A DNA stretch of 24,999 nt from Longimicrobiales bacterium (lineage in GTDB: Bacteria > Gemmatimonadota > Gemmatimonadetes > Longimicrobiales > RSA9): NCBI GenBank assembly GCA_033722595.1, contig JAWVYT010000001.1, forward strand, positions 1 to 24,999, in the 5' to 3' direction. A program made the position numbers and the translations under genes. Positions 1 through 24,966 of this stretch are shown here, piece after piece; the first letter of the stretch is position 1, and each line of letters starts with the position of its first letter. Below the pieces are notes generated by a model. The model was given only the letters and a program-made list of their open reading frames with translations, ran no database searches and was not told the DNA's origin.

Positions 1-452
1 CCGAAGCAGTAGTCGGCCCCGCCGAACGACTCGATCAGCGATGTGGCGGCGCCGGGTTCGTTTGGGTCGGGGAACCGGACGTTGGCCGGGTCGGGCCGAA
101 GCTCCGGGTCCATGGGGTCCACCAGCGACGAGCGGACGAAACGGCGGAAGCTCAGCGGATGGTCCTCCGCGATGTACTCGTCGTTCTCGTCCAGGTACTC
201 ATCCATGCTGATGGTGACCAGCGGCGCGCACGAGACCCGCTCCTCGTTGCACAGGCGAGCCCAGTACCGGTAGTCCAGCGGGCCCACGGGGACGATCATC
301 AGGACCTGTCGGCCGGCTTCGCCGGCGGCCCGGATGGCGTCCACGGCCTCCCGGGCGACCCGGCGGTTCAGGGCGTCCAGATCATTGACCCGGTTGAACC
401 GGAAGGGCCGGAGCCGGCTGAAGTCTTCGAACTCGGTCTCGTAGATATCCAT
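1..452 (-). CDS. Glucosamine-6-phosphate deaminase/isomerase (NagB)-like protein, C-terminus truncated by window edge
   Basis: Not in the ORF track; translated manually from ATG at 452: MDIYETEFEDFSRLRPFRFNRVNDLDALNRRVAREAVDAIRAAGEAGRQVLMIVPVGPLDYRYWARLCNEERVSCAPLVTISMDEYLDENDEYIAEDHPLSFRRFVRSSLVDPMDPELRPDPANVRFPDPNEPGAATSLIESFGGADYCFG. MDEY, HPLSF and IESFGGAD match NagB-family MDEY, HPxSY and IxxxGGID segments. Open to position 1. Confidence 0.75.
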   Translation of the reverse strand, partial: MDIYETEFEDFSRLRPFRFNRVNDLDALNRRVAREAVDAIRAAGEAGRQVLMIVPVGPLDYRYWARLCNEERVSCAPLVTISMDEYLDENDEYIAEDHPLSFRRFVRSSLVDPMDPELRPDPANVRFPDPNEPGAATSLIESFGGADYCF

Positions 453-489
453 CACTGTCTCGGGTTCGGGTAGCTCGTGCAGGGGGCGG

Positions 490-1284
490 TCACAGCTTCA
501 GGAGTCTGGCTGCAGTCCCCCCGTAGATCCGGTCGACGACCGCGGTCGGGAGATCGAGGCGCCGGATGATATCGTCGTGGTACTCCTTGGCCGGGATCAG
601 CTCGTCCAGAGCCAGGATATCGGTGCCGAAGACGACCTTGTCCCAGGCGTTCTCCCAGAAGAAGTGGTACCGATAGAAGTCCAGGTCCTTGTTGGCCCGC
701 CAGCCGCCCCAGGCGGCTCCCGTGAGGTCCACGTAGTAGTTCGGGTGCATCCGGGCCATCATGGACGCCTCCTCGTGCCAGGGCGCGCCCAGGTGGGCGC
801 CCACCACGTTCAGGCCGGGGAACGACCGGAGCACGACGTCCAGGCGGATCGGGCGCATCCAGTCGGCGTTCACCAGCCGTCCCTCGGGCCGGGCCGTACG
901 CATCACGATCCCCGTGTGGGCCAGGAGCGGCAGCCCGGACGCCTCCATCCGGTCGTAAAGCGGGAAGTGGTCGGGGTCGTCGTAGGGACTGACGGGGTTG
1001 GTCACCTTGAAGCCCCGGAACCCCATCTCCACGAACCGGTCCACGTCTTCCGGCACGTCGCTGCCGAGGCGGACGAGGGCGAAGGCGAAGATGCGGTCCG
1101 GATGGGCCGTCGCCGCCTCCAGCACTCGCAGGTTGTCGGCGTGGCCGAACTCCGGACCCGCCGAGAAGAGGCAGATCCGGTCGATCCCGGCCCGGTCCAT
1201 GCGCCGGACAAGCCGCGCGGGGAAGTCCGGCTCGTCGGCCGGGTAGTGTGCGTGGAAATCGATGACCATTTTCGCGCGTTCCAT
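490..1284 (-). CDS. Amidohydrolase family protein (Amidohydro_2-type TIM barrel metalloenzyme)
   Basis: Motifs IDFHAH (HxH), GFRGFK, AHTG, GAHLG, VDLTG, VVFGTD. Start trimmed to ATG 1284, 5 nt after the SSS stop; ATG 1269 is an alternative. Confidence 0.85.
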   Translation of the reverse strand: MERAKMVIDFHAHYPADEPDFPARLVRRMDRAGIDRICLFSAGPEFGHADNLRVLEAATAHPDRIFAFALVRLGSDVPEDVDRFVEMGFRGFKVTNPVSPYDDPDHFPLYDRMEASGLPLLAHTGIVMRTARPEGRLVNADWMRPIRLDVVLRSFPGLNVVGAHLGAPWHEEASMMARMHPNYYVDLTGAAWGGWRANKDLDFYRYHFFWENAWDKVVFGTDILALDELIPAKEYHDDIIRRLDLPTAVVDRIYGGTAARLLKL

Positions 1285-1289: not shown

Positions 1290-3116
1290 CTACTCCGCAT
1301 CCACCGGTGGCCGCCGAAGCTCTTCGAGCGCCGTCGGCGGGGCGAACTCCAGTCGCGGCCACAGCCGGGCCAGGACCAGGGCGGCGACGACGGCCAGCGT
1401 GGTCAGCGCCAGTGCCGGCCCCATACGGCCGTACAGCCAGTAGCCCACGGAGAACAGCGTGGAGTATACGGCGATGGCCCCGAGGCCGGCACACACCAGG
1501 CCTATGGGGACGTCCCAGCCGCCGCCCTCCGGCAGGGCGTCTCCCGCTTCCACGGCCCGGGCCCGGACCACGGTCCAGCCCGGTCCGCCCGGCCGGACCT
1601 TCTGGTAGAAGCGTCGGAGCACCCGGTCATCGGAGGGCCGCGTCAGCAGGGTCACCACGAGCCAGGTGGTGGTGGTGAGCACCACCGTGGTCAGCAGGAT
1701 CTGCCAGCTCCGGAGCGGGGCGAACCCCAGCGGCTCGTGGACGAAGTTGAAGTAGACCGCCGTGGTGAGGGCCGTGGCCATGGCAGCGATCTCGCTGAAA
1801 GCGTTGACCCGCCACCAGAACCAGCGAAGCAGGAAGACGAGCCCCGTCCCCGCCCCGATCTGCAGCAGGAGCCGGAAGACCTGGAGCGCGCTCTGCAGCT
1901 GGAGCGCAACGAACCCGGCGAGGAGGACGAAGAGCACCGTCGCGATCCGCCCCACCAGGACCCGCTCCCTTTCATCGGCCTCGGGCCGGTAGAAGCGTCC
2001 GTAGAGGTCGTTGACCACGTACGACGACATGAGGTTGAGCTGCGTGGAGATGGTCGACATGTACGCCGCTGCCAGCGAGGCCACGACGATGCCGAGTAGG
2101 CCCGGCGGCATGAACGTCAGCATGGCAGGGTAGCCGAGGTCGTGACCCGGCGGGGCGGTGGGGAACGCCGCCGCCAGCGACTCGAGGTCCGGGAAGACGA
2201 TGAGCGACGCGAGGGCCACGATGATCCACGGCCAGGGCCGGACGGCGTAATGGACCACCTGGAAGAACAGCGTGGCGCCCATGGCGTGCCGCTCGTCCTT
2301 CGCCGACAGGATCCGCTGGACGATGTAGGCGGCGCCGCCGGGTTCCGACCCGCCGTACCACATGCTCCACCAGAACACGGTGAGGGGGAGCACGAAGATG
2401 GACATGGCCAGGTCCATGTCGTCGAACGAGGGGACCAGGGCCGTCTTGGCCACGACGTTGGCGTGCCCGAGCAGCCCGTCGAGACCACCCACCTGGGGAT
2501 GAGTGAGGGCGACGTACGCCGCGGCCACCGACCCGAAGATGGCGATGCCGAACTGGAACAGGTCGGCCCAGACCACGCCCCGGAGCCCGCCGGACATGCT
2601 GTACAGGGCCGTAATGCCGCCGCCCACCAGGACCACCGTCAACGGCTGCACCCCGATCATGATCCCGGCGATCTTGATGGCCGCCAACGTGATGGCCGCC
2701 TGCGCCAGGATCCCGAACACCAGGACCATGTAGCCCGCTCGGAACGCCCGGAGGAAGGCCGCGGGCTTCCCGCTGTAGCGGAGCTCGTAGAAGGAAATGT
2801 CGGTGAGGAGCCCGCTCCGGCGCCACAGCTTGGCGTACACGAACACCGTCAGCATCCCCGTAAGGAGGAGGGCCCACCACTCCCAGTTCCCGGCCACGCC
2901 GTGCCGCCGAACGATGTCCGTGACCAGATTGGGCGTGTCCGTGGAGAAGGTGGTCGCCACCATGGACGTGCCCAGCAGCCACCACGGCATGTTGCGGCCC
3001 GAGAGGAAAAACTGGGCCGAGTCCTTCCCGGCCTTCCGGCTCGCCAGGATCCCGATGACCAGCGAAAGGGCCATCACGCTCAGGATGATGGCCAGGTCCA
3101 GCGTGGACAGGATCAT
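1290..3116 (-). CDS. Na+:solute symporter (SSS family)
   Basis: 608 aa with many hydrophobic helices; FFLSGRNMPWWLLGTSMVATTFS, GGLRGVVWADLFQF, IVQRILSAKDE and AAYMSTISTQLN are SSS-type segments. Confidence 0.92.
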   Translation of the reverse strand: MILSTLDLAIILSVMALSLVIGILASRKAGKDSAQFFLSGRNMPWWLLGTSMVATTFSTDTPNLVTDIVRRHGVAGNWEWWALLLTGMLTVFVYAKLWRRSGLLTDISFYELRYSGKPAAFLRAFRAGYMVLVFGILAQAAITLAAIKIAGIMIGVQPLTVVLVGGGITALYSMSGGLRGVVWADLFQFGIAIFGSVAAAYVALTHPQVGGLDGLLGHANVVAKTALVPSFDDMDLAMSIFVLPLTVFWWSMWYGGSEPGGAAYIVQRILSAKDERHAMGATLFFQVVHYAVRPWPWIIVALASLIVFPDLESLAAAFPTAPPGHDLGYPAMLTFMPPGLLGIVVASLAAAYMSTISTQLNLMSSYVVNDLYGRFYRPEADERERVLVGRIATVLFVLLAGFVALQLQSALQVFRLLLQIGAGTGLVFLLRWFWWRVNAFSEIAAMATALTTAVYFNFVHEPLGFAPLRSWQILLTTVVLTTTTWLVVTLLTRPSDDRVLRRFYQKVRPGGPGWTVVRARAVEAGDALPEGGGWDVPIGLVCAGLGAIAVYSTLFSVGYWLYGRMGPALALTTLAVVAALVLARLWPRLEFAPPTALEELRRPPVDAE

Positions 3117-3803: not shown

Positions 3804-5255
3804 CTAGTCGATTCCGCCGAAGGACAGGTGCTTGGTCTCCAGGAAGGCGTCCAGCCCCTCGGCTCCCAGCTCCCGACCCATTCCACTCTGCTTCATCCCG
3901 CCGAACGGGCTCTGGCTCGTCGACGGGACCGCGTCGTTGATCCCCACGGTCCCCGCCTCGAGCGCCTCCCCGACCCGCCATGCCCGGGCCAGGTCCGTGG
4001 TGAAGACGTACGCGGCCAGGCCATACTCCGTGGCGTTGGCCCGCGCCACTACCTCGTCTTCGTCGTCGAAGACCAGGAGGGGCGCGATGGGGGCGAACGT
4101 CTCTTCCACCGTGCACGCATGATCATCGGCCACGCCCTCGAGGACGGTCGGCTCCAGGAAGTAGCCGTCCAGCTCGGCCCGCCCGCCACCGGTGAGGACC
4201 GTGGCGCCCGCAGACACGGCGGCCTCGATGCTGGCCTCAGCGGCCTCCAACGCCCTCTCGTCCACCATGGGTCCGATATCGACCCCCTCGGTGAGCCCGT
4301 TCCCGACCTCGAGGTCCCGGACGCCGGCAACGAAGGCCTCCCGGAACGCGTCGTAGATGCCGCGCTGCACATAGATCCGGTTCGCGGCGATGCACGACTG
4401 ACCCGTGTTCCGGAACTTCGTGATCAGCGTTCCCTCGACGGCCATCTCGAGATCCGCGTCATCGAACACCACGACGGGGGCGTTGCCGCCCAGCTCGAGG
4501 GACAGCTTTGTGATGTCGTCCGCGGCCAGTCGCATGAGCTGGCGACCCACGGATGTGGAGCCCGTGAAGCTCACCTTGCGGCACTCCCGGTGCCCGAACA
4601 TGGCCTCGGCCACCGCCCGTGCGTTCCCCAGGACCAGCTGGAAGACGCCGCGCGGCAGCCCGGCCTCGTGGATGGCTTCGGCCAGGAGTACGGACGACAG
4701 AGGCGTCGCGCTGGCCGGCTTCAGCACCACCGGACACCCGGCGGCCAGGGCGGGGGCCACCTTCCGGACGGCGAGCACCAGCGGGAAGTTCCAAGGCGCG
4801 ATCGCGCCCACCACGCCGACCGGCTGACGGATGATCACGTGCCGCTTCCCGTCGACCTGGTGGGGGATGACCCGGCCGTAGCCCCGTCGGGCCTCCTCGG
4901 CGAACCACTCCAGGTGATCCACCGTCATGCCCACCTCGCCCCGGCTCTGCGCCAGCGGCTTGCCGTTCTCCCGCGTCAGCGTTCGGGCGATCTCGTCGGT
5001 ACGGTCCTCGATCCCCCGGGCGATCCGCCGGAGGTAGCCGCCCCTCTCCTTGCCCGTGAGGCGCCGCCAGCCGGGCCACGCGGCCGCCGCATCATCCAGG
5101 GCGGCGCGCACGCCGCCGGCGTCCACGGTCGCCACCCGACCGATGGTCTCGCCGGTGGCCGGGTCCTGGACGGCCAGGGGGTCGCCGCCCCGGTACCACT
5201 CGCCGTTCAGGTACAGGGGACGGACGCTCTGCGTGGGTGCTGATGTAGCTGACAT
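3804..5255 (-). CDS. NAD-dependent aldehyde dehydrogenase, GabD/succinate-semialdehyde dehydrogenase-like; candidate sulfolactaldehyde dehydrogenase
   Basis: IAPWNFP, VVLKPAS, SFTGSTSVG, LELGGNAP (catalytic Glu), RNTGQSCIA (catalytic Cys), EETFAP, PFGGMKQSG. Family is certain; substrate is inferred from context. Confidence 0.9.
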   Translation of the reverse strand: MSATSAPTQSVRPLYLNGEWYRGGDPLAVQDPATGETIGRVATVDAGGVRAALDDAAAAWPGWRRLTGKERGGYLRRIARGIEDRTDEIARTLTRENGKPLAQSRGEVGMTVDHLEWFAEEARRGYGRVIPHQVDGKRHVIIRQPVGVVGAIAPWNFPLVLAVRKVAPALAAGCPVVLKPASATPLSSVLLAEAIHEAGLPRGVFQLVLGNARAVAEAMFGHRECRKVSFTGSTSVGRQLMRLAADDITKLSLELGGNAPVVVFDDADLEMAVEGTLITKFRNTGQSCIAANRIYVQRGIYDAFREAFVAGVRDLEVGNGLTEGVDIGPMVDERALEAAEASIEAAVSAGATVLTGGGRAELDGYFLEPTVLEGVADDHACTVEETFAPIAPLLVFDDEDEVVARANATEYGLAAYVFTTDLARAWRVGEALEAGTVGINDAVPSTSQSPFGGMKQSGMGRELGAEGLDAFLETKHLSFGGID

Positions 5256-5306: not shown

Positions 5307-6575
5307 TCAGGGGGCCCGGGCCGGGACGTCCAGGTCCTCGGCATGGGTGCCCGCCGAGCCGGAGCGGACCTGCGCCAGGATCGTCTCCTCGTCCTCCGGG
5401 AAGCTCCACGAGAACCCCATCCAGGCTGCCCCGAGCGCGCCCGCGATGCCGCCCAAGCGCCCGTCCTCGAGGTAGGTGGTCTTCAGGATCTGGGGCAGCA
5501 CGTGCTCCCGGAACGTCTCCTCCAGCGCCTGCCGGACCGTGGAGCAGCAGTTCGGGACCTCGCCGGATAGCACGATCTTCTCCGGGGCGAAGAGGTTGGC
5601 GAGGTTCGCCAGGATGGTGCCCAGACGCTCACCCAGCTCCTCGAGGCAGGCATCCAGAAGGTCGTCACCGGCCTGGGCCTCCTCCACCAGGTCGGAGAGC
5701 CGCAGATCTTCACCCTTGTCCAGCAGCCGCTGTCGACTGTCCGTCTTCTGCCACGAACGCAACATGGCCCGGGTCGACTCCACGAACCCCGTCGCCGATA
5801 CCAGGTCGGTGACCAGCTTGGGCCCCCCATCGGTCGGCAGCACCGTGTAGCCCACCTCGCCCGCCAGCGCGTTCGCGCCCCGGTAGACCCTGCCATCGAT
5901 GACGATCCCGAGACCCACGCCCGACCGGACCGCCAGACACAGGAAGTCGCTGTTGCCACGCCCCGCGCCCCGCAGCAGCTCCGCGTAGGCCACCGCACGG
6001 ATGTTGTCCTCCACGAAGACGGGGACGTCCGGACCGAGGGCGGCCTCCATACGCTCCCGGACCGGGACCTGGTCGAAGTCCGGCAGGAGCCGGTAGTGGA
6101 GGATGCGGCCGGAACGCACGTCCACCTGGCCCGGCGCCGCGACACCCACGGCAAAGACTGGCCCATCCGCTTGTTCGACCATTCTCCGGGCCAGCTCCGT
6201 TATCGTCTCGAGCGCTTCCTCCCGGGAAGGGGAGGCCGGCAGCGAGACCTCCTCCTCCTTCAACACACCCCCGCCGAAATCACACAGCACCGCACGGGCC
6301 CGGAGCGCCTCGAAGTCGAGACCCACGAACGTGCCGTAGTCCGGGTTGAGTTGCAGCGGCACCGGCGCACGACCGGGGCGCGACTGCACCGGCTCGCCCT
6401 CCAACAGTATCCCGACGTCGAGGAACTCGTTGACGTATCGGCCGACCATCGTCGCGTTGATGTTCAGGCGCTGCGCAAGCTCGAAGCGGGAGCAGCGCTC
6501 ACTCCTGAACACCTGGTTCAGGATGCCGCGCTTCTTGGCCACCAGCTTCGTTTCTCGAGGTCGAGGATACGCCAT
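5307..6575 (-). CDS. ROK family transcriptional regulator
   Basis: N-terminal HTH (SRFELAQRLNINATMVGRYVNEF), then ROK segments VGLDF, VGVAAPGQVD, GVGLGIVIDGRVYRG and AGEVG. Confidence 0.9.
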   Translation of the reverse strand: MAYPRPRETKLVAKKRGILNQVFRSERCSRFELAQRLNINATMVGRYVNEFLDVGILLEGEPVQSRPGRAPVPLQLNPDYGTFVGLDFEALRARAVLCDFGGGVLKEEEVSLPASPSREEALETITELARRMVEQADGPVFAVGVAAPGQVDVRSGRILHYRLLPDFDQVPVRERMEAALGPDVPVFVEDNIRAVAYAELLRGAGRGNSDFLCLAVRSGVGLGIVIDGRVYRGANALAGEVGYTVLPTDGGPKLVTDLVSATGFVESTRAMLRSWQKTDSRQRLLDKGEDLRLSDLVEEAQAGDDLLDACLEELGERLGTILANLANLFAPEKIVLSGEVPNCCSTVRQALEETFREHVLPQILKTTYLEDGRLGGIAGALGAAWMGFSWSFPEDEETILAQVRSGSAGTHAEDLDVPARAP

Positions 6576-6633
6576 GTCGAAGGGCCTCGCGTCCGGTCAG
6601 TCGTCCCGCCGCAGTCGATGCGGTCCGTGGAGT

Positions 6634-6651
6634 TATTATGAAGTCATAAAT
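6634..6651. promoter_or_regulatory. Candidate ROK operator (site 1)
   Basis: Perfect palindrome TTATGA-AG-TCATAA (6636-6649) overlapping the spacer and -10 of the promoter. Confidence 0.65.
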
Positions 6652-17300: not shown

Positions 17301-17582
17301 GACGTCCTCCTCTACCGTGGAATACCCGATGGACTGGGCCACCAGCGTTACGGTCTGGTCCCGAACCAGAGAAGCCGGAACCGCAATGCGGTACCGGCCC
17401 TGTTGATTCGTGAAGGTCCCGAGCCCCTGGTCCGCCAGCCCGTCGACGTAGACCTGTACGCCCGGCATCGGGTCCCCGGCCTCGTTGGCCACCGTGCCCA
17501 GGAGCGTCGCTTCCTGCGCCAGCGCCGGGCCGGATCCCAGGAGAAGGAGTGCGAAGATGAGTCCAATTGGCCTGGTCTTCAT
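14340..17582 (-). CDS. susC: SusC/RagA-like TonB-dependent transporter
   Basis: Signal peptide, N-terminal beta-sandwich, DEIVVTG TonB box, PLYVVDGV and IEVIKGAAAASLYGSRAAAGVIQIRT plug motifs, terminal Phe (VEITF). ATG 17582 with AGAGG RBS; 1080 aa. Confidence 0.93.
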   Translation of the reverse strand: MKTRPIGLIFALLLLGSGPALAQEATLLGTVANEAGDPMPGVQVYVDGLADQGLGTFTNQQGRYRIAVPASLVRDQTVTLVAQSIGYSTVEEDVTLESGTHVVDFVLRQTALSLDEIVVTGVVDPVQGKKLPFTVGRVSAENVATVPATGAALQSLQGKVAGVNITRPSGQPGEEVSIQLRTPTTVFTGNEPLYVVDGVILGAGTIDLEALDIESIEVIKGAAAASLYGSRAAAGVIQIRTARGSGVALDQTRFTYRSEAGASALPRRIPSLEAHWRVVNEGEPYTDSHGRLVRTGDMLDRDGDLGCRRFYPNCEGFANNPGQIADQSYIDPLYDHIGTFYKPGRFLMQSFGVSRNSEKTNFLTSFNLYDEAGSIPGHEGFERYNFRFNLDHRIMDNLSLSFSGYHNRSFRETIDEGESGATGQGAFFQLMRYRNEFDIGKIDPETGLYVQFPDSSYWQENPLFLAQTRDNWEKRSRTLGNIALNYSPAQWLRISGQFSYDRLDRNNQWHLPAGTPINPFSGNPETFPSPGLLDLRERTMDTQNGSLRATLTENFGLLNSRLTFAGSFESRDLVDVQTRGEDFAVLGTSDVNLARDRTIRSTNETIRANGYFADLALDYSDKYIGSFLVRQDGSSLFGPEERWHTYFRTALAYRVSEEPWWPFADVITEFKPRYSLGTAGNRPDFAFQYETWDVDVSADGQTVTFTRGTLGNRALKPEFAREQEVGLDVALYDRYLLQLTYATQRTEDMILRRPQRAVTGYQYQWDNIGTIEGTALEMSLEASLIQSDNLRWTATFVGDQTTSTITEWPIAPLRDGLRIYDEGNSLYDIYGSQFLTSLDQLADIGLAGFEDEFDVNDEGYVVWVGAGNTWRDGLEDSGTGRVNWETRTTIDGVRYDWGWPVAMFDPATGEQLTFKIGSMKPDFSYGFLSNVTWKGLSVHAHLRGQIGGDVYNYTRQRMYRLSQHGDLDQRGKSEETKKSRRYYQRGLYNNNIFTDPFVEDATFLKLQAIQLAYTFNRGQLGWLPGSMAPQNLTLGITGRNLFTLTGYSGYDPDVGTVLNRYDAFGYPNLRQLTATVEITF

Positions 17583-17832: not shown

Positions 17833-17838
17833 GCTTTT

Positions 17839-17935
17839 TATTGTGCAAACAGAAAGAAAAGCGCGCGGTGTGTGCCCCGGAGGGTGCCGGACGTCGGACG
17901 GGCCGGTTCAGGCGTATGTTATTACGAAAACAGAT
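17839..17935. promoter_or_regulatory. Pair of candidate ROK operators (sites 2 and 3)
   Basis: TATTGTGCAAACAGAA (17839-17854) and TATTACGAAAACAGAT (17920-17935), 81 bp apart. Confidence 0.55.
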
Positions 17936-17987: not shown

Positions 17988-19463
17988 TCAGGAGTCGGGG
18001 GTGCCCGTGTACGCGGGATTCGGCTCCGGCATCTGGGCGTCGATCTCGGTGAGCCAGCGGGTGAGGCGTGCCTGGAGGTCGTCGCGGAGCTCCGGGCGGG
18101 CGGCGCTCAGGTCACGGGACTCGGTGGGATCCTGGCGCAGGTCGTAGAGCTCGGTCCGGTCCTCGTGGTACCATCGGATGAGCTTGTGGTCGCCGAAGCG
18201 AATGGCGCTCGAAGGTCGGTGCCCGGAGCCGTGGTAGTGGGGGTAGTGCCAGTAGAGGGCGTCCCGCGAGAGCGCTCCGTCGCCGGTGAGGAGCGGGAGG
18301 AGGCTCAGGCCGTCATCCAGGGTGTCGCCGGGCTCGAGGCCGGCGATCTCCAGCAGGGTGGGGAAGAGGTCGTTGGTGATCACGGGCTCATCGATGACGG
18401 ACCCCGGGCCCACCACGCCGGGCCAGCGAACCATCATCGGTCCGCGGATCCCGCCCTCGTACAGCCACCCCTTGCCGGCGCGGAGCGGCAGGTTGGAGGT
18501 GGGCGGCTCGATGGGCCAGTCGCGCTCGAGGACGGCCAGTCCGCCGTTGTCGGACAGGAAGACCACCGCGGTGCGCCCCGCCAGATCGTTCTCATCGAGG
18601 CTGCGCAGAACCCGGCCCACGGCCGCGTCCAGGGTCTCGACCATGGCCGCGTACACGGGGTCGCTCTGGACCCTCCGGTGGACGTGGGGACCTTCCGGCC
18701 CGAAGACATCGAGGGTATCGAGCCCCATGCGCTCCGCTTTCTCCCGGTACGCGGCCACGAGCGCAGGTTTGCCTTCCAGCGGCGTGTGCGGTGCGTAGAA
18801 CGACAGGAAGAGGAAGAACGGGCGGTCCCGGTGCTCGCGTATGAAGGCGGCGGCTTCCTCACCCAGGCGATCGGTGAGGTTCTCGCCCTCGGCCCCCGTG
18901 GCGGTCAGCTGCGGCAGGTCGCGGCCATTGCCCACGTACGGCCAGAAGTAGGTCGGGGGCGAGCCGTAGTCGTTGGCCCCGATCACCCGATCGAACCCCT
19001 GGTCCGACGGCCGATGACCCTCCCGACCCAGGTGCCACTTGCCGATGTGCGCGGTGGCGTATCCGGCATCGCCGAGCGCCTCGGCCAGCGTGAGCTCGTC
19101 CAGGGGGAGCGCCGCGTGGTCCCGCACCTGGAGCAGACGCTGGTGCGAGGCGTCGCCCTGACCCGGGAGCCAGTCCGTGATCCGGAGCCGGGCGGGGTAG
19201 TGGCTCGTGAGGATGCTCGCCCGTGAAGGAGAGCAGACCGACCCGGCCGTGTACGCATGCGTGAACCGGGCGCCCGACGTCGCCAGGCGATCCAGGCTCG
19301 GCGTCTCGTGGAACCCGCTGCCGTAGACGCCGAGATCCGCCCAGCCTAGGTCGTCGGCCACGATGACCACCACGTTCGGCGGCGGGACCGGCGTCGGGTC
19401 GCCGCAGCCGAAGACCATGAAGAGAACGACGGGCAATGGGATGCGTCGGGACCAGGTGAGCAT
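17988..19463 (-). CDS. Cys-type formylglycine-dependent sulfatase (S1 family), probable lipoprotein
   Basis: PNVVVIVADDLG, CSPSRASILT (CxPxR), HIGKWHLG, FLSDNGG, KGWLYEGGIR, ELYDLRQDPTE; lipobox VFGC; ATG 19463; 491 aa. Confidence 0.93.
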   Translation of the reverse strand: MLTWSRRIPLPVVLFMVFGCGDPTPVPPPNVVVIVADDLGWADLGVYGSGFHETPSLDRLATSGARFTHAYTAGSVCSPSRASILTSHYPARLRITDWLPGQGDASHQRLLQVRDHAALPLDELTLAEALGDAGYATAHIGKWHLGREGHRPSDQGFDRVIGANDYGSPPTYFWPYVGNGRDLPQLTATGAEGENLTDRLGEEAAAFIREHRDRPFFLFLSFYAPHTPLEGKPALVAAYREKAERMGLDTLDVFGPEGPHVHRRVQSDPVYAAMVETLDAAVGRVLRSLDENDLAGRTAVVFLSDNGGLAVLERDWPIEPPTSNLPLRAGKGWLYEGGIRGPMMVRWPGVVGPGSVIDEPVITNDLFPTLLEIAGLEPGDTLDDGLSLLPLLTGDGALSRDALYWHYPHYHGSGHRPSSAIRFGDHKLIRWYHEDRTELYDLRQDPTESRDLSAARPELRDDLQARLTRWLTEIDAQMPEPNPAYTGTPDS

Positions 19464-19559: not shown

Positions 19560-19569
19560 ATCGGAGGGT

Positions 19570-19666
19570 TGTTCCGGAAACAGATTATCAGTAGGCCGGC
19601 CTTCTGCCCACCCGCCCCGGGCGCGACGGCGGGCGAACTTGACCCATTGATATTACGATAGCAGAA
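19570..19666. promoter_or_regulatory. Pair of candidate ROK operators (sites 4 and 5) in the divergent promoter region
   Basis: TGTTCCGGAAACAGAT (19570-19585) and TATTACGATAGCAGAA (19651-19666), 81 bp apart. Confidence 0.6.
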
Positions 19667-20063: not shown

Positions 20064-21233
20064 ATGGAACACCGATTCAACGGGTACGTGCGCGACGACG
20101 GGCAGGTGGGGATCCGGAACCACATCCTCCTGTTGAGCGCCACGCTGTACGCGAACTCCACGTGCGAGCGAGTGGCCCACACCGTCCAGAACACGATTCC
20201 CATCGTCCACCCGCTGGGCCGGTGCCAGATCGCCCCGGACCTGGAGCAGACCTTCCGGACGCTGGTCGGCCACGGGGTGAATCCGAACGCGGGTGCCGTC
20301 GTGGTGGTGGACCACTTCAAGGAGGCGGGGTGCGAGGCCGAGACCATCGCCCACGAGATCGCGAAGACGGGGAAGCCGGTGGAGGTCGTGAACATCCGGC
20401 GGTCCGGCGGCGCGATCCAGGCCACCATGGAGCTGACGAAGCACGCGGTAGCGCTGAACCGGGAGATCACGGGGCAGCGTCGGGAAGAGGTCGGACTCGA
20501 CGCCCTGGTCTATGGGATCAACTGCGGGACCAGTGATGTTACCAGCGGGCTCGCCCAGAACCGCGTGGTGGGCTGGGTTACGGACCGGGTGGTGGAGGCC
20601 GGCGGTCGAGTCATCGGCGCGGAGACCACGGAAATGATGGGCGGCGAGGACCAGATCCGGGCCCGGGCCACGTCGTCGGAGGTCGCAGAGCGGATCCTCG
20701 GCTATGTGCACCGGCGGGAGCAGGAGATCCTCGCCACGGGGGTGGATCTCCGGGGCAGCCAGCCCACGGGCGACAACATGGCCGGCGGTCTCTCGACCAT
20801 CGAGGAGAAGTCGCTGGGCGCGATGATGAAGTGGGGCTCGGCCCCGATCGTCGGAGCGCTGGACTACGCCCAGCGGGTCGGCACGGAGTCCGGCCTGTGG
20901 CTCATGGACACGCCGGGCCATGGCGGGGAGTCGATTACGGGGATCGCCGCCGGCGGGGCCCAGGTCATGAGTTTCGCCACGGGGGGCGGGCACACCATCA
21001 ACCATCCGCTGATGATCACCATGCGGCTCACGGGGAACCGGGAGTCGTGGCAGCACATGCAGGAGACCACCGAGCTCGATGTCAGCGGCATCTTCGATGA
21101 CGAGTCGTTGGAGGAGGCCGGGGAGCGACTCCTGGCCGAGGTGCTGGCGATCTGCGACGGCCGGATGACGAAGGCCGAGGCGCTCCGGGAGTGGAACGCC
21201 TTCGCCATCACACGCAACGGCCCCAGCGTTTGA
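20064..21233 (+). CDS. suyB: UxaA/GarD-family catalytic subunit, SuyB ((R)-sulfolactate sulfo-lyase beta)-like
   Basis: GYVRDDGQVGIRNH, HPLGRCQIAPDLEQTFRTLVGHGVNPN, IAKTGKPVE, CGTSDVTSG, GNMAGGLSTIEEKS-type segment (DNMAGGLSTIEEKSLGA), FATGGG; ATG 20064; 389 aa. Family is certain; orthology to SuyB is inferred. Confidence 0.78.
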   Translation: MEHRFNGYVRDDGQVGIRNHILLLSATLYANSTCERVAHTVQNTIPIVHPLGRCQIAPDLEQTFRTLVGHGVNPNAGAVVVVDHFKEAGCEAETIAHEIAKTGKPVEVVNIRRSGGAIQATMELTKHAVALNREITGQRREEVGLDALVYGINCGTSDVTSGLAQNRVVGWVTDRVVEAGGRVIGAETTEMMGGEDQIRARATSSEVAERILGYVHRREQEILATGVDLRGSQPTGDNMAGGLSTIEEKSLGAMMKWGSAPIVGALDYAQRVGTESGLWLMDTPGHGGESITGIAAGGAQVMSFATGGGHTINHPLMITMRLTGNRESWQHMQETTELDVSGIFDDESLEEAGERLLAEVLAICDGRMTKAEALREWNAFAITRNGPSV

Positions 21234-21838
21234 GCGCCGTCGCCACGCCCTCGCTCCCGGTGTTCCGGGACGTGTTGGCGGAGGTCGTCATCGCCGAGCG
21301 GGCGGAGGGATGGCTGGCTCGCTGTGCCGCGACCGGTACGTACCTGGTGGTGACACGGGAGCTGGTCCACGCGCTGGTGGGGGTCATCGAACGGCTCGGG
21401 GCCCCTCCGGTCCTGGAGGTCTGCGCGGGCGACGGCACGCTGGCGCGGGCCCTCGCCGAGCTCGGGGTGTCCGTCACGGCCACGGATGCCCATCCAGCCC
21501 GCGGGAGCCGCGTGACAGCGTGCCCCGCCGCCGCGTCGCTGCGACGGTATCCCCATCCGATGGTTCTCGGGAGCTTCGTCCCCTTCGATGCCGGGATCGA
21601 GGAGCGTATCCTGGCCGCCGGTCATGTCCGGCACTACCTGGCGCTGGGCGCTCGGATTGGCGTCCACGGCGGCGTCACGAACCGCTTGGGGGCCGTGCCG
21701 GGCTGGGATGCCGTTCCGCTGCCCGGCGTGGCCCGGTGGATGGTCACGCGCCACGACGCGTGGCTCGGCGACGGGTCGTCGATCCGCTGTCGCGGCGAAG
21801 CCTGGCTCCTGAGCCGCACGCAGGAGGTCGGACCGTGA
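21230..21838 (+). CDS. Hypothetical protein with class I SAM-dependent methyltransferase-like motif
   Basis: VLEVCAGDGTLARAL followed by VSVTATD (motif I and the beta2 Asp). TTG 21230 overlaps the suyB stop and its own stop overlaps the next start. Confidence 0.65.
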   Translation: MSAVATPSLPVFRDVLAEVVIAERAEGWLARCAATGTYLVVTRELVHALVGVIERLGAPPVLEVCAGDGTLARALAELGVSVTATDAHPARGSRVTACPAAASLRRYPHPMVLGSFVPFDAGIEERILAAGHVRHYLALGARIGVHGGVTNRLGAVPGWDAVPLPGVARWMVTRHDAWLGDGSSIRCRGEAWLLSRTQEVGP

Positions 21839-22923
21839 CGCGCTACGACCCCGTCGCGGTGCGGGCACTGGTCGGGGAGATCGGCGTGTCAGCGGGTCTC
21901 CCCGCCGGCGACGCCGCGCTCTTCGCCGACGCCCTGATAGACGCCGATCTCCATGGGCGGTCTACACATGGGCTCTCGCGTCTCGCAATCTACATGAAGC
22001 GCATGGATCACGGACTCATCGATCCCCGGGCGGAGCTCCGGGTCGAGCGGCATGCCCCGGGCGTCCTGTCGGTGGACGCCCGGAACGGGGTGGGCCAGGT
22101 CCAGGCGATCCGGACGCTGGAACGGCTGCGGCCGCTGGCCGTGGACCTGGGAGTGGCCGCGGCCACGATCCGGGGGTCCCAGCACTTCGGCGCCCTCGGC
22201 TACTACTGCGACTGGGCGGCCGAGCGGGACATGATCCTCCTGGCTACCACGGCGGCCGAGCCGGCGATGAGTCCGACCGGGGGATACGAGCCCTTCTTCG
22301 GCACGAACCCCATCGGCGCCGGCTTTCCTACGGGGAAGGGGTGGCCGGTGACCATCGACCTGGCCACGTCCATAGTGGCGCGGGGCAACATCATCGCGGC
22401 CGAGAAGGAAGGCCGGCCGATCCCGGAGGGGTGGGCGCTGGATGCGGACGGCCATCCCACCACCGACGCTGCGGCGGCCCTGGCCGGCACCGTTCTCACT
22501 ATGGCCGGCCACAAGGGGTACGCCCTGGCGCTGCTGGTCGAGCTGCTGTCGAGCGTGCTGAGCGGCGCGGCCGTCGGGCCGTCGATCGGCTCCATGTACA
22601 AGGATCTGGATCGGCCCCAGGACGTGGGCCATTTCTTCTGCCTGCTCCGGATCTCGGCGTTCATGGACCCCGAGGCCTTCCGGAGCCGGGTGGATGCCAC
22701 CATCGACCGGATCACCTCGCTGCAACCGCGGCCCGGCAGCGACGGGATCCGCGTTCCCGGTGAACATTCAGCCAGGAAGGCCCGGGAGAATCGCCGGTTG
22801 GGGATCGCGCTGGGAGCCGCGACCGTCCGCGAGGTCGACGCGCTGGCCGACCGGTACGGGATCTCGACGCGGCTGGAGCAGCTCCGGGTGCCGGCCGCTT
22901 CCTCGGGCGGGCCGAATGCCTGA
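21835..22923 (+). CDS. comC: Ldh_2-family (type 2 malate/L-lactate) dehydrogenase, ComC (R)-sulfolactate dehydrogenase-like
   Basis: DADLHGRSTHGLSRL, HFGALGYY, FGTNPI, IDLATS, GHKGYALALLVELL; GTG 21835 with AGGAGG RBS. Family is certain; substrate from context. Confidence 0.75.
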   Translation: MTRYDPVAVRALVGEIGVSAGLPAGDAALFADALIDADLHGRSTHGLSRLAIYMKRMDHGLIDPRAELRVERHAPGVLSVDARNGVGQVQAIRTLERLRPLAVDLGVAAATIRGSQHFGALGYYCDWAAERDMILLATTAAEPAMSPTGGYEPFFGTNPIGAGFPTGKGWPVTIDLATSIVARGNIIAAEKEGRPIPEGWALDADGHPTTDAAAALAGTVLTMAGHKGYALALLVELLSSVLSGAAVGPSIGSMYKDLDRPQDVGHFFCLLRISAFMDPEAFRSRVDATIDRITSLQPRPGSDGIRVPGEHSARKARENRRLGIALGAATVREVDALADRYGISTRLEQLRVPAASSGGPNA

Positions 22924-23884
22924 CATCCTGGTCAGTGAGGACGTGGGTGGCCCGGCCCTGTCGGCGCTCGGAGGCCGGTATGAAGTGGTCGTGGAACCGG
23001 AGCTCTGGCGTCGCCCCGACGCACTGGCCCGGCGGATCCGGGGCTGTCGGGCCCTCATCGTTCGGAACCAGACCCAGGTCACGAGTGGGCTCCTGGCCGC
23101 CGCGGAGGACCTCGAGGTCGTGGGACGAGCGGGCGCGGGGCTGGACAACGTCGACGTGGAGGCGGCGACCGCGGTGGACGTCCGCGTCTGCTACGCGCCG
23201 GAGCAGAACGCCCTCTCCGTAGCGGAGCTCGGGATGGGGATGCTGCTGGCGCTGGCCCGCAGGCTGGTACCGGCCGACCGCTCGACCCGGGCCGGGTACT
23301 GGGATCGGCAGGAACACACGGGGATCGAGCTGCACGGGCGGACGCTGGGCGTCATCGGGTTCGGCCGGATCGGGTTCCTGATGGCGATGCGCGCCCGTGC
23401 CTTCGGGATGACCGTGCTCGCCCACGACCCCTTCCTCGGGCCGGACCACGTCACCCTCGTGGCGGCCGGCGCCGAGCTGGTGGGTCTCGAGGAGCTGCTG
23501 GGCCGGGCGGACGCGGTGACCTGTCACCTGCCGAGCACCCCCGGGACCCGCGGCCTGCTGAACGCGGAGCGTTTCGGGCGGATGAAGTCCGGGGCCCTCT
23601 TCCTGAATCTGTCGCGCGGCGACGTGGTGGAGGAGGCCGCCCTGATCGAGGCGCTGGAGGCGGGCCAGATCGGCGGCGCAGGACTCGATGTCCGGGCCGC
23701 CGAGCCACCGGCAGCCTCGCCGCTGGACCGGCTTGACAACGTGATCCTGACCCCGCACATCGGCGCCTTCACCGAGGAGGCGCAGCACCGGGTCGTGGCG
23801 GCCGTGTGCCGCGACATCCGGCGGGTGCTCGAAGGCGAGCAGCCCATGTACGCGGCGAACCGCCCCCGCGGGAGCGCACGTTGA
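22916..23884 (+). CDS. slcC: D-isomer-specific 2-hydroxyacid dehydrogenase, SlcC (S)-sulfolactate dehydrogenase-like
   Basis: MPDILVSE, ALIVRNQTQV, GRAGAGLDNVD, GVIGFGRIG, AHDPF (NAD-type Asp), NLSRG, LDVRAAEP, TPHIG; no ACT domain; ATG 22916; 322 aa. Substrate from context. Confidence 0.72.
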   Translation: MPDILVSEDVGGPALSALGGRYEVVVEPELWRRPDALARRIRGCRALIVRNQTQVTSGLLAAAEDLEVVGRAGAGLDNVDVEAATAVDVRVCYAPEQNALSVAELGMGMLLALARRLVPADRSTRAGYWDRQEHTGIELHGRTLGVIGFGRIGFLMAMRARAFGMTVLAHDPFLGPDHVTLVAAGAELVGLEELLGRADAVTCHLPSTPGTRGLLNAERFGRMKSGALFLNLSRGDVVEEAALIEALEAGQIGGAGLDVRAAEPPAASPLDRLDNVILTPHIGAFTEEAQHRVVAAVCRDIRRVLEGEQPMYAANRPRGSAR

Positions 23885-24966
23885 CCCGGTCCGATCCCGG
23901 CCGGAGCCTGGCGGCTGCGCTGCCCGGGTTGGCGCTGGTGGCGGCCCTCGCGGTCGGCGCGACAGCGATGAGCGGGTGGGTCGGCGAGGGGCTCCTGGGG
24001 TACACCACGAGCCCGCTGAGCCCGATCCTGCTGGCGGTCTTGTCGGGCCTGCTGATCCGGAACACGGTAGGCCTCGACGGCGCGTTCGCACCGGGCATCG
24101 CGTGGACCGCCGGCCCGCTCCTCCGCGTCAGCATCGCGCTGCTCGGGATCCGGCTGAGTGTGGGCGCCCTGGCAACCCTGGGGGTGATCGCGCTGCCGAT
24201 CGTCGTCGGGTGCATCGTCGCCGCCCTGGGGGCCATCGGGGCCATTACGCGGCTCGTGAACGTACCGCCCCGGCTCGGGTCGCTGATCGCCGCCGGGACC
24301 AGCATCTGCGGGATCACGGCGGTGGTGGCGCTGGCCCCGGTCATCGAGGCCCGGGACGACGAGACCAGCTATGCGGTGGCCACCGTCGCCCTGTTCGGGA
24401 TGATCGCCCTGTTCTCCTACCCGTTCCTGGCACACGTCCTGTTCGACGACGCGACCCGGGCCGGCCTGTTCCTGGGCACCTCCATCCACGACACCTCCCA
24501 GGTGGTCGGGGCGGCCCTGGCGTACAGCCAGCAGTTCGGGGCCCCCGAGGCGGTGGAGACGGCCGTGGTGACCAAGCTCGTCCGAAACGTCGGCATCATC
24601 GCCGTGATCCCGCTGATCAGCTACCTGCACGCGTCCCGGTCCGATGACAGCTCTCGGCCCGCGCCCGCCGTGCCAGGCTTCATCCTCGCCTTCGTCGCCA
24701 TGGCGCTCCTCCGGACGGCGGGTGACCTGGCTGCGGCCGCCGGGCTCCTCCCGGTCGCGGGCTGGGACCGTGCCGTGGCGTGGACGCAGTGGGCGGCCGC
24801 CGGTGGGCTGCTCGTGGCCATGGCCGCCGTCGGGCTCGGCACCCGGGTCGATGGTCTGCTCGGCCTGGGCGCGCGCCCCCTGGCCGTCGGCCTCACCGCG
24901 GCTCTGACCGTGGGCGGCGTGAGCATCGTCCTCATCGAGCTCCTCGGTATCGTGCATGTACTCTGA
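23881..24966 (+). CDS. YeiH/UPF0324 family putative sulfate/sulfite exporter (SuyZ/TauZ-like)
   Basis: GLLIRN, IALLGIRLS, LIAAGTSICGITAVVALAPVIEA, GTSIHDTSQVVGA, VVTKLVRN; about 10 hydrophobic helices; TTG 23881 overlaps the upstream stop. Confidence 0.88.
   Translation: MTRSDPGRSLAAALPGLALVAALAVGATAMSGWVGEGLLGYTTSPLSPILLAVLSGLLIRNTVGLDGAFAPGIAWTAGPLLRVSIALLGIRLSVGALATLGVIALPIVVGCIVAALGAIGAITRLVNVPPRLGSLIAAGTSICGITAVVALAPVIEARDDETSYAVATVALFGMIALFSYPFLAHVLFDDATRAGLFLGTSIHDTSQVVGAALAYSQQFGAPEAVETAVVTKLVRNVGIIAVIPLISYLHASRSDDSSRPAPAVPGFILAFVAMALLRTAGDLAAAAGLLPVAGWDRAVAWTQWAAAGGLLVAMAAVGLGTRVDGLLGLGARPLAVGLTAALTVGGVSIVLIELLGIVHVL

Follow-up and report, generated by a model that had tools for sequence, protein, structure and literature searches.

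A Longimicrobiales gene island predicted to couple transaldolase-type sulfosugar cleavage to a SuyAB-like lyase within one regulon

Can a single bacterial cell carry a sulfur-bearing sugar from capture at the outer membrane to release of the sulfur group? The question is raised by a 24,999-nucleotide contig (JAWVYT010000001.1) of a Longimicrobiales (Gemmatimonadota) metagenome-assembled genome (MAG; GCA_033722595.1), which we analyzed over its whole length and refer to as the window. It holds a long run of minus-strand genes, from a NagB-like gene to a sulfatase gene, and a divergent plus-strand run from a SAF-domain gene to a YeiH-family gene (Table 1). Comparison of these genes with related loci leads us to conclude that the two arms very probably work together as one co-regulated route, running from a transaldolase and an aldehyde dehydrogenase (ALDH) to a SuyAB-like lyase. 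With moderate confidence we favor a fuller reading, a single-cell route in which a 6-sulfo sugar from a sulfated glycan would be degraded with use of all six carbons and release of the sulfur. Gene families, localization signals, pocket residues, operator sites and cross-phylum synteny were read directly from the sequences; all catalytic activities, along with which sugar is used and whether its C6 group is a sulfonate or a sulfate ester, are predictions drawn from them. Since the window is 69% GC, GC content at third codon positions was used to choose the real reading frames before Pfam and NCBIfam profile searches, and the resulting gene map matches independent gene calls made on a longer copy of the same DNA. 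Every gene family named in an earlier interpretation, made from the nucleotides without database searches (the sequence-only reading), was found in the window; the sulfatase, the AGE-family gene, orfX and the NagB-like gene were missing from its summary.

The first line of evidence comes from the transaldolase (TAL), whose best PDB match is the sulfofructose transaldolase (SF-TAL) of Bacillus megaterium (BmSF-TAL, 8bc3; 198 bits), ahead of the T. maritima TAL (159 bits) and others at about 130 bits. It is 37% identical to the housekeeping TAL encoded on contig C630 of the same MAG. Unlike classical enzymes, the window TAL and BmSF-TAL carry a Trp, within SPF(L/V)GW(R/K)E, at the Arg position of phosphate-specific TALs. 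The two also share a basic-His dipeptide after TTNP (K30-H31 in the window, R-H in BmSF-TAL) and an NPHL insertion, both absent in classical TALs, while the Schiff-base Lys is retained (K88) and R171 is present. None of 32 clade members departs from W137, H31, R171 or the Schiff-base Lys, and position 30 varies only between K and R. The structural roles of these pocket residues, such as that of the phosphate-binding Arg, are assigned by alignment. Lys versus Arg at position 30 was rejected as a marker of front-end type or substrate, as it correlated with neither. The pocket would suit activity on 6-deoxy-6-sulfofructose, in keeping with the SqvA-like identity originally proposed for this protein.

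Beside it lies a GabD-type ALDH, as the sequence-only reading had also recognized, which scores 468 bits against RlGabD, the sulfolactaldehyde (SLA) dehydrogenase of Rhizobium (8c54), and 495 bits against E. coli GabD. Its R164 and R282 are invariant and correspond to Arg171 and Arg289 of RlGabD, the proposed sulfonate binders; C288 and WNF155-157 are also present. This Arg pair occurs in succinate-semialdehyde dehydrogenases as well, so it fits an SLA dehydrogenase without being diagnostic, and the ALDH pocket was dropped as a discriminator. The invariant basic residues of TAL and ALDH argue together against a neutral substrate.

The plus-strand arm was compared with the characterized sulfolactate module, for which the Paracoccus wurundjeri study gives SuyB (PF20629 and PF04295), SlcC (PF00389 and PF02826), ComC (PF02615) and a SuyA without a Pfam family (PMC12421959). 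The window holds this published SuyB/SlcC/ComC Pfam set and a SAF-domain SuyA-like subunit in one operon, with YeiH added, which bears out at family level the suyA-suyB-comC-slcC-exporter-like operon proposed earlier. The same split SAF/GD_AH pair with two dehydrogenases recurs in loci L052-L054, L060, L062 and L068, and SuyA-like orthologues (54-70% identical) precede the SuyB-like genes in L052-L054, L060, L068 and L069. SuyB-like proteins are 72-91% identical across Acidobacteriota and Planctomycetota and have orfX, an Ldh_2 dehydrogenase and a 2-Hacid_dh dehydrogenase as constant neighbors, often joined by YeiH. It is to these invariable neighbors, and not to homology alone, that the pair owes its putative sulfo-lyase identity.

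Homology itself speaks less clearly. Against plasmid-borne UxaA-family homologues the SuyB-like protein reaches 47% identity at most, and against proteobacterial ones it stays below 40%. The best NCBIfam match of the SuyAB-like pair is galactarate dehydratase, below cutoff, and all NCBIfam equivalog models score below their own cutoffs; for the Ldh_2 protein the L-sulfolactate dehydrogenase model comes first, with 242 bits where its cutoff is 500. A split UxaA pair on a Priestia megaterium plasmid, 39% identical, lies amid genes of the dihydrodipicolinate synthase (DHDPS) family, the fumarylacetoacetate hydrolase (FAH) family and alpha-ketoglutarate-semialdehyde dehydrogenase (KGSADH), a cluster that is a sugar-acid pathway. 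The SuyAB identity assigned by the sequence-only reading holds for the family set and otherwise relies on gene context. Taken further, the Priestia cluster, the galactarate dehydratase match and the subthreshold equivalog scores would suit a sulfur-free route, in which the glycan would lose its sulfate to the exported sulfatase, the sugar taken up would be neutral and the UxaA-type pair would act as an ordinary sugar-acid or glycerate dehydratase. We consider this highly improbable: the basic anion-binding residues of TAL (K/R30, R171) and ALDH (R164, R282) are invariant, the phosphate-binding Arg of TAL has been lost in the same way as in SF-TAL, the NagB-like protein retains its Arg172 equivalent, and the neighbors of the pair are Ldh_2, 2-Hacid_dh and a putative sulfate exporter (PSE) family protein, not DHDPS, FAH and KGSADH.

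One constant member of the lyase arm, orfX, is absent from the published Paracoccus suyAB-slcC-comC cluster. Its products are 210-227 aa long, carry the motif VLEVCAGDG, belong to no Pfam family and are 45-49% identical in three phyla. The gene always stands between the SuyB-like and Ldh_2 genes, both in the window and in L052 (11179-11802), L053 (11260-11901) and L054 (11386-12021). Feature matches in the ESM Atlas are clusters without names and distant S-adenosylmethionine-dependent methyltransferases; orfX may be an accessory subunit. Two variants of the arm were seen elsewhere. The SlcC-like protein of L062 (12894-15110) is fused to YeiH/PF03601 in a single 738-aa chain, a Rosetta-stone fusion that ties export to the dehydrogenase step. 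Divergent from the lyase arm of a Luteitalea MAG (L052:7655-9489) are a split transketolase (N-terminal and pyrimidine-binding/C-terminal parts) and a gene for a 293-aa protein; genes for a TonB receptor and a LacI regulator lie close by. The same lyase module could here be served by a front end of the transketolase type.

Regulation provides the physical link between the arms. The operator TTATTAYGAWARCAGAW has five matches in the window (up to 3 mismatches) against 0.01 expected, a statistic that is partly circular because the pattern was derived from the same five sites. All five lie within AT-rich islands of three long intergenic promoter regions: one site at the promoter of the ROK-family repressor gene, a pair upstream of SusC and a pair in the divergent sulfatase/suyA promoter, both pairs having an identical 81-bp centre-to-centre spacing. 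When a matrix built from these sites was used to scan about 250 kb of related loci, it gave single matches only directly upstream of orthologous ROK genes, namely in Luteitalea L060 (a near-identical site 35 bp upstream of the ROK gene) and in the Planctomycetota loci L021, L027 and L029; the same sequence was found by eye in L069. Such conservation at ROK promoters in other phyla makes it the predicted operator of the ROK protein, whose orthologues (58-69% identity) flank TAL there. Thus the shared operator motif on which the original linkage of the arms relied is real, and in this organism the ROK operator would cover both arms and make them one regulon, binding being predicted from the conserved sites. 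The ROK-family repressor NagC forms loops between two operators, and the equally spaced pairs recall cooperative or looping binding by repressors of this kind.

That the window might instead hold two unrelated neighboring operons, sharing nothing but AT-rich promoter sequence, seems to us scarcely credible. The circularity of the operator count, the separate GntR regulator of the L060 lyase arm and the five TAL-bearing Planctomycetota genomes in which no SuyB-like orthologue was found are what this view can draw upon. It has to contend with the confinement of matrix sites to ROK promoters in the other loci, with the spacing common to both operator pairs, and with the recurrence of TAL and lyase loci in several lineages, including a single co-linear operon in L069.

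This recurrence, which the sequence-only reading had put forward as a check by synteny, extends beyond the phylum of the host. The closest TALs in species-representative genomes are 53-68% identical and all come from Planctomycetota MAGs; a larger protein collection holds at least 818 members of the clade, among them proteins from Luteitalea, Vicinamibacteraceae, Gemmatimonadaceae and Hyphomicrobiales MAGs. A W137-type TAL and the lyase share one locus in Luteitalea L060 (Acidobacteriota), in L069 and in L059+L062. Luteitalea L060 reads ROK, KduI-like, ALDH, TAL, major facilitator superfamily transporter (MFS), GFO/IDH/MocA, Amidohydro_2, GntR, SuyA-like, SuyB-like, orfX, Ldh_2 and 2-Hacid_dh, with proteins 65-80% identical to their window counterparts. 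The co-linear operon of L069 runs ROK, KduI, ALDH, TAL, MFS, GFO, exported sulfatase, SuyA, SuyB and orfX. L059 and L062 are contiguous on a 190-kb contig that carries SusC/D, two sulfatases, a lyase arm with the SlcC-like-YeiH fusion and a ROK-KduI-ALDH-TAL arm, together with a sulfite-oxidase/cytochrome c fusion beside TAL, a formylglycine-generating enzyme and glpK/F/D-like genes. L068 is the right arm of the window with p529, the second NagB-like gene and both GH42-like genes described below. Fused operons in Rhodopirellula (L053) and Thermoguttaceae (L054) combine GntR, TAL, ALDH, NagB-like, PIG-L, SuyA, SuyB, orfX, YeiH in some cases, Ldh_2, 2-Hacid_dh, MFS and GFO, and L054 has a heparinase II/III neighbor. 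Their TALs (L053:5662-6309, L054:5498-6166) keep the phosphate-type Arg (SPFVGRLD), have no NPHL insertion and show T-H after TTNP, and may have a different anion specificity. The presence of TAL and lyase loci in several phyla indicates that the joining of both arms is a recurrent, conserved design with interchangeable front ends, widespread in related forms among uncultured Planctomycetota and Acidobacteriota.

What enters this route is indicated by the front end. Among 39 tabulated W137-type TALs, 21 have a NagB-like neighbor, 15 a PIG-L (CE14-type) de-N-acetylase, 5 a KduI/IolB-type cupin isomerase and 12 a sulfatase. A profile of the NagB-like family matched glucosamine-6-phosphate deaminases in 12 of 13 PDB hits (about E 1e-30), the remaining one being 6-phosphogluconolactonase at 8e-4. 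The family keeps MDEY, GHIAFNEP and the Arg172 equivalent; the Asp141 equivalent is Asn, Lys208 is replaced by Arg, and the phosphate-binding loop PTGGTP is shortened to PVGP throughout. These motifs and the altered loop suggest a 2-amino-6-sulfo sugar as substrate. The NagB-like type, tightly linked to PIG-L in Planctomycetota, suggests the classical logic of deacetylation followed by deamination, applied to an N-acyl 2-amino sugar with a C6 anion other than phosphate. Both NagB-like proteins, the Amidohydro_2 hydrolase, TAL, ALDH and the whole lyase arm have no signal peptide, and the sodium:solute symporter (SSF) is likely the inner-membrane importer. Sister loci with a KduI/IolB-type isomerase use the same TAL type, and the identity of residue 30 does not track the front end, from which it follows that KduI-type and NagB-type front ends probably yield the same ketose. 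Paired with an SF-TAL-type TAL, the NagB/PIG-L front end may represent an undescribed sulfo-sugar metabolism, either catabolism of N-acetyl-sulfoquinovosamine (a 2-acetamido-6-sulfonato hexose) or a sulfatase-independent glycolysis of hexosamine-6-O-sulfate, a proposal that we put forward as tentative.

The exported proteins point to the polymer from which such a sugar might come. Signal peptides or lipoboxes were found on the sulfatase, SusC, the SusD-like protein, the 681-aa and 577-aa proteins, the AGE-fold protein, the small lipoprotein, p529 and the 696- and 679-aa proteins. The SusC/RagA transporter scores 483 bits against a cutoff of 368 (TIGR04056), and its neighbor is a divergent SusD-like lipoprotein whose C-terminal helix aligns with bona fide SusD. 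Of the SusC/D pair with exported enzymes proposed earlier, SusC and the export signals are clear, and the SusD assignment of the partner is weak. The sulfatase has a CSPSR motif and a lipoprotein signal when read from the ATG at 19463; its best PDB matches are a kappa-carrageenan S1_16 sulfatase (419 bits) and N-acetylgalactosamine (GalNAc) sulfatases, not N-acetylglucosamine (GlcNAc)-6-sulfatases. The TAL-adjacent sulfatases of Planctomycetota are closest to S1_19 exo-4S enzymes and likewise not to GlcNAc-6-sulfatases. For the 577-aa protein no Pfam or PDB sequence match was found; its AlphaFold2 model has a (beta/alpha)8 barrel and a beta-sandwich, with GH53, GH10, GH5 and GH14 as nearest folds (identity at most 14%), and the family has just 60 cluster representatives among 1.84 billion proteins. 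It forms a paralogue pair (32% identity) with p529 (L047:14893-16479). The 696-aa (L047:17392-19479) and 679-aa (L051:12120-14156) proteins form another pair (34-37% identity) with 13 proteins in public data, and by structure comparison the former aligns with the three-domain GH42/GH164 architecture in full (E about 1e-21, TM score 0.54-0.59). The 681-aa protein gave no Pfam or PDB sequence match either; searches of ESM Atlas structures returned only neutral/alkaline ceramidase N-domain clusters (TM score by target up to 0.76), which is a lead, not proof, that it is a ceramidase-fold amidase. This exported set of a sulfatase, four clan-GH-A-like glycosidase-like proteins and a ceramidase-fold amidase implies a sulfated beta-linked glycan and not an alpha-linked sulfolipid headgroup.

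The sequence-only reading had instead envisaged sulfoquinovose (SQ), SQ-glycerol or the sulfolipid sulfoquinovosyl diacylglycerol (SQDG) as substrate. SQ would be isomerized to sulfofructose by the AGE-fold or the NagB-like protein and then pass through sulfo-TAL and SuyAB. Several observations would suit this: the window TAL has the same pocket as BmSF-TAL, JGI labels some members of the clade as SF transaldolase, and the tidal-flat habitat is rich in phototroph lipids. Sister loci contribute a KduI/IolB-type isomerase, a sulfite oxidase, glpK/F/D-like genes that would suit SQ-glycerol, and a cytoplasmic GFO/IDH/MocA protein adjoining the MFS gene (L053:15773-16801, L060:12106-13140, L069:6670-7755; 57-80% identity) that matches the GH188 NAD-dependent sulfoquinovosidase 8qc2 at 80 bits, level with its best PDB match. 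This last gene is absent from the island around the window, its best matches in the MAG being 23-27% identical. Neither on the 43-kb scaffold that also carries the window DNA nor in the 74%-complete MAG was a GH31 YihQ-type or GH188 sulfoquinovosidase found, the only GH31 protein of the MAG being alpha-xylosidase-like (435 bits versus 153 for the YihQ-type model). The scaffold has no SftI-, DUF4867- or KduI-type isomerase, and no KduI was found in the MAG; DUF4867 was not found there either, although control genomes likewise gave no matches to it. The AGE-fold protein, with a Cys-bearing signal peptide and a low-complexity linker, scores 72 bits against N-acylglucosamine and cellobiose epimerases and only 37 bits against YihS, and since it is exported it cannot be a cytoplasmic YihS-type SQ isomerase. 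SQ-glycerol is alpha-linked, whereas the exported enzymes resemble beta-retaining GH42, GH164 and GH53 folds; a small sulfolipid headgroup would need neither a SusC/D pair nor a sulfatase, and throughout the clade NagB-like genes go together with PIG-L de-N-acetylases. With a NagB-type entry in place of any known SQ isomerase, we regard an SQ-based substrate as doubtful here.

Slightly less unlikely, in our judgment, is a sulfate ester at C6, with sulfate serving as a surrogate for phosphate. A hexosamine-6-O-sulfate such as GlcNAc-6-sulfate would be deacylated and deaminated by the NagB-like enzyme to fructose-6-sulfate, TAL would yield glyceraldehyde-3-sulfate, ALDH would oxidize this to 3-O-sulfoglycerate, and the lyase would beta-eliminate sulfate to give pyruvate. 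GlcNAc-6-sulfate is known and abundant, whereas no report of a sulfonated amino sugar was found in the literature, and the deacetylase and NagB logic fits amino-sugar catabolism. Exported sulfatases occur at 12 of the 39 W137-type TAL loci, lie within the operon in L069, number two in L062 and are found with a heparinase II/III in L054; being of the 4S/Gal-type S1_16 and S1_19 classes and not GlcNAc-6-sulfatases, they would let a 6-sulfate survive. The fused operons of L053 and L054 have Arg-type TALs, as expected for a longer O-linked anion. The window TAL, however, has the Trp pocket of the sulfonate-specific BmSF-TAL, a sulfite oxidase fusion stands beside the same TAL type in L059, and the families of the lyase arm correspond one by one to those of the sulfolactate module; the literature searched, on fructose-6-sulfate, on sulfoquinovosamine and on transaldolase together with GlcNAc-6-sulfate, gave no description of such an enzyme. 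It is these same three features of pocket, lyase arm and sulfite oxidase that make a sulfonate appreciably the more probable C6 group. TAL-adjacent sulfatases acting as cytoplasmic substitutes for the lyase, which would favor the ester, were ruled out, as all those examined have signal peptides and are exported. In six Planctomycetota loci TAL adjoins a pyridoxal-phosphate enzyme that might have been a CuyA-type cysteate lyase; it proved to be housekeeping threonine synthase (647 bits, above cutoff).

Returning to the single-cell route from a 6-sulfo sugar, several observations weigh against it, beginning with the distant homology of the SuyB-like protein and the sugar-acid setting of its Priestia relative. 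Exported sulfatases persistently accompany TAL and lyase loci, which is unexpected for a pure sulfonate, and no report of a natural 2-amino-6-sulfonato sugar was found in the literature. KduI/IolB-type isomerases replace the NagB-like protein in sister loci with the same TAL type, so the latter could be a plain aldose-ketose isomerase. An Amidohydro_2 orthologue, 67% identical, lies in Luteitalea L060, a locus without amino-sugar genes. The SusD-like protein matches the SusD_RagB Pfam family weakly (E 0.08), and a sulfite oxidase next to TAL was seen in one locus only, L059.

The route that we favor would begin with extracytoplasmic capture and trimming by SusC and the SusD-like protein, the S1_16-like sulfatase and the four GH-A-like glycosidase-like proteins, with participation of a BNR propeller protein and of the ceramidase-fold amidase coupled to the AGE-fold lipoprotein. 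The SSF symporter would take up the sugar, and the NagB-type deaminase/isomerase, present as two paralogues, would form a 6-sulfo-ketohexose. The SF-TAL-type transaldolase would then move C1-C3 to glyceraldehyde-3-phosphate, giving fructose-6-phosphate and 3-sulfolactaldehyde, which the GabD-type ALDH would oxidize to sulfolactate. The SlcC-like and ComC-like dehydrogenases are predicted to invert C2 via sulfopyruvate; the SuyAB-like lyase, possibly aided by orfX, would eliminate sulfite to leave pyruvate, and YeiH would export the sulfur oxyanion. The ROK repressor would bind operators in its own promoter region, upstream of SusC and between the divergent sulfatase and suyA genes, and would so hold both arms in one regulon.

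Each part of this scheme has known counterparts. The sulfo-TAL pathway of Bacillus aryabhattai and B. megaterium (SftT/SqvA, SftI/SqvD, SftD/SlaB, SftG and an exporter) has the same TAL pocket and an adjoining NAD(P)-dependent ALDH. Unlike it, the Gram-negative island has no GH31 sulfoquinovosidase, SftI-type isomerase, DUF4867 or TauE exporter; it has SusC/D with exported enzymes, a NagB-type front end and ROK instead of GntR, and sulfolactate is predicted to be degraded and not excreted. The SuyAB-SlcC-ComC module of Chromohalobacter salexigens and Paracoccus pantotrophus shares the four families, a co-linear operon and a PSE/YeiH-type exporter, whereas the predicted module of the window belongs to a distinct UxaA clade (at most 47% identity to plasmid-borne homologues), has the extra orfX and places comC before slcC. 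E. coli NagA/NagB under NagC follows the same de-N-acylation and NagB logic, with a ROK repressor and paired operators in a divergent promoter region; here the NagB phosphate loop is remodelled, there is no kinase or phosphotransferase system, and TAL, ALDH and lyase stand downstream in place of glycolysis. Like polysaccharide utilization loci of Bacteroidota, the island pairs SusC/RagA with a lipoprotein partner and co-regulates exported sulfatase and glycosidase-like proteins with cytoplasmic catabolism. It differs from them in its Gemmatimonadota host, in a barely recognizable SusD-like protein, in using ROK rather than hybrid two-component or extracytoplasmic-function regulators, and in that most of its exported enzymes fall outside known CAZy families.

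The sequence-only reading had called the combination undescribed, which holds in part. Paracoccus wurundjeri has a sulfofucolytic Entner-Doudoroff (ED) and SlcC/ComC/SuyAB tandem pathway in one bacterium (mBio 2025; PMC12421959), and actinobacterial GH188 clusters with an SLA dehydrogenase, a PGDH-like dehydrogenase and SuyAB were reported from bioinformatics in a 2024 micropublication (PMC11465081), so one-organism sulfoglycolysis with SuyAB is already published. As in the island, P. wurundjeri unites in one cluster the cleavage of a C6 sulfosugar to sulfolactaldehyde and complete desulfonation. Its route is of ED type (dehydrogenase, lactonase, dehydratase, aldolase) with an ABC importer in a proteobacterial host, whereas the island takes a transaldolase route with an SSF importer and SusC/D, and its candidate SLA dehydrogenase is of the classical GabD type. 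The actinobacterial clusters also join sulfoglycolysis genes to SuyA/B, but are like the sulfo-Embden-Meyerhof-Parnas pathway (SF kinase, sulfofructose phosphate aldolase, fucose isomerase); genes for a transaldolase, SusC/D or a NagB-like protein are missing from them. No description of the transaldolase version was found, and the literature searched yielded nothing on a TAL-plus-SuyAB fusion, on these phyla, on a NagB/PIG-L or KduI front end, on SusC/D linkage or on orfX.

Current models of SQ and sulfonate cycling are largely two-tier, with primary degraders that excrete C3 sulfonates and mainly Alpha- and Betaproteobacteria that desulfonate them (PMC13436972), and sulfo-TAL has been described in Firmicutes and inferred in Thermotogae and Chloroflexi. 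The loci considered here suggest that abundant, uncultured Gram-negative bacteria of sediments and soils (Planctomycetota, Acidobacteriota and some Gemmatimonadota) may perform both tiers in one cell, using a transaldolase route characterized so far in Firmicutes. With a KduI-like or NagB-like front end, these loci would escape homology screens that require known SQ isomerases (PMC13372026). That exported sulfatases, de-N-acetylases and NagB-type enzymes consistently accompany them is a hint of an unrecognized pool of sulfo-sugar substrates. If the tentative proposal of a new metabolism is correct in its first form, N-acetyl-sulfoquinovosamine would be a natural sugar that chemists have yet to find; in its second form, a sulfate ester would replace phosphate as the handle and the SuyAB-like beta-eliminating lyase would remove sulfate last. 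Two rare glycosidase-like families, the ceramidase-fold/AGE pair, the conserved orfX and the ROK operator are testable items within the locus.

The window is the complete contig C1 of the 3.1-Mb MAG, and its DNA is also present on a 43,141-bp scaffold of a tidal-flat metagenome, which MAG contigs C120 and C425 continue at 99.9% identity. To the left on this scaffold lie the full NagB-like gene (286 aa) and a gene of the class-II ketose-bisphosphate aldolase family (L049:14196-14936) that overlaps the NagB-like stop codon and is truncated where the scaffold ends; no kinase gene was seen. To the right of YeiH follow a 529-aa lipoprotein (p529), the second NagB-like paralogue (277 aa), the exported 696- and 679-aa paralogues, a BNR/sortilin propeller, a macro-domain protein and then unrelated genes. 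As part of the reading favored here, and with the same moderate confidence, we regard the window as the core of an accessory catabolic island of about 38 kb in a Longimicrobiales bacterium. No TAL orthologue was found in 40 relatives from the same genus, family and order, where the best matches are the 34-40%-identical housekeeping enzyme, nor was this TAL type found in 400 other sampled Gemmatimonadota genomes; the 681-aa protein is absent from the same 40 relatives. This rarity in the host lineage marks the island as accessory, and it was probably acquired horizontally. Mis-binning was ruled out as the explanation by the continuity with C120 and C425 and by a scaffold P-type ATPase that is 73-83% identical in genomes of the same genus and about 47% in other genera, which places the scaffold in the host genus and confirms the Gemmatimonadota host that had been surmised from the DNA. 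Beyond the island, MAG contig C215 is just 92.8% identical to L051:17137-21967, against 99.9% for C1, C120 and C425, which points to heterogeneous strains or to a relative co-assembled into the bin.

Table 1. Genes and predicted operator sites of the window, in order of position
Feature	Position	Strand	Basis or remark
NagB-type deaminase/isomerase, paralogue 1	3-455	-	N-terminal 151 aa in window; contig end cuts gene
Amidohydro_2 metal hydrolase, cytoplasmic	490-1284	-	PF04909, E 3e-29
Sodium:solute symporter (SSF)	1290-3116	-	PF00474, E 1e-33; TIGR00813
Sulfofructose-transaldolase-type transaldolase (TAL_FSA), 221 aa	3125-3790	-	PDB and pocket comparison
GabD-type aldehyde dehydrogenase, candidate sulfolactaldehyde dehydrogenase	3804-5255	-	PF00171, E 2e-166
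ROK-family repressor, N-terminal winged helix (NagC/Mlc type)	5307-6575	-	PF00480 and HTH_24
Predicted operator O1, ROK promoter	6633-6649	+	
Small lipoprotein, 207 aa	6703-7326	-	Lipobox; no Pfam family
Exported AGE-fold (GlcNAc 2-epimerase family) lipoprotein	7367-8890	-	PF07221, E 4e-30
Exported ceramidase-fold amidase-like protein, 681 aa	8887-10932	-	ESM Atlas structure search
Exported TIM-barrel glycosidase-like protein, 577 aa	10929-12662	-	AlphaFold2 model, pLDDT 86
Divergent SusD-like lipoprotein	12740-14320	-	Lipobox; adjoins SusC
SusC/RagA TonB-dependent transporter	14340-17582	-	TIGR04056, 483 bits (cutoff 368); Plug and CarboxypepD_reg
Predicted operator pair O2/O3, upstream of SusC	17838-17854 and 17919-17935	+	81 bp apart
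Exported formylglycine sulfatase lipoprotein, S1_16-like	17988-19463	-	PF00884 and SGSH_C
Predicted operator pair O4/O5, divergent sulfatase/suyA promoter	19569-19585 and 19650-19666	+	81 bp apart
SuyA-like small subunit, SAF domain, 105 aa	19730-20047	+	PF08666
SuyB-like large subunit, UxaA C-terminal family (GD_AH), 389 aa	20064-21233	+	PF20629 and PF04295
orfX, conserved, 215 aa, class-I methyltransferase-like Rossmann motif	21191-21838	+	Independent gene call
ComC-like Ldh_2 dehydrogenase	21835-22923	+	PF02615, E 9e-110
SlcC-like D-2-hydroxyacid/PGDH-type dehydrogenase	22916-23884	+	PF00389 and PF02826
YeiH/PSE-family putative sulfate/sulfite exporter	23881-24966	+	PF03601, E 1e-56; TIGR00698

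Some features of the minus-strand run concern its smaller members and the expression of its genes. The small lipoprotein resembles the C-terminal domain of the p529 family, with 29% identity to this part of the L068 homologue. One ceramidase cluster of the Atlas fuses the ceramidase domain to AGE, and Spirochaetota clusters carry ceramidase-AGE fusions. The starts of the 681-aa and AGE genes overlap the stops of the genes before them (GTGA at 10929-10932 and ATGA at 8887-8890), which suggests that the 577-aa, 681-aa and AGE genes are translationally coupled. Rfam and tRNA scans of the window gave no matches. Between the SusD-like and 577-aa genes, at 12673-12708, lies a 16-nt GC-rich inverted repeat (88% complementary, 4-nt loop) that may be an intra-operon attenuator or RNA-processing site.

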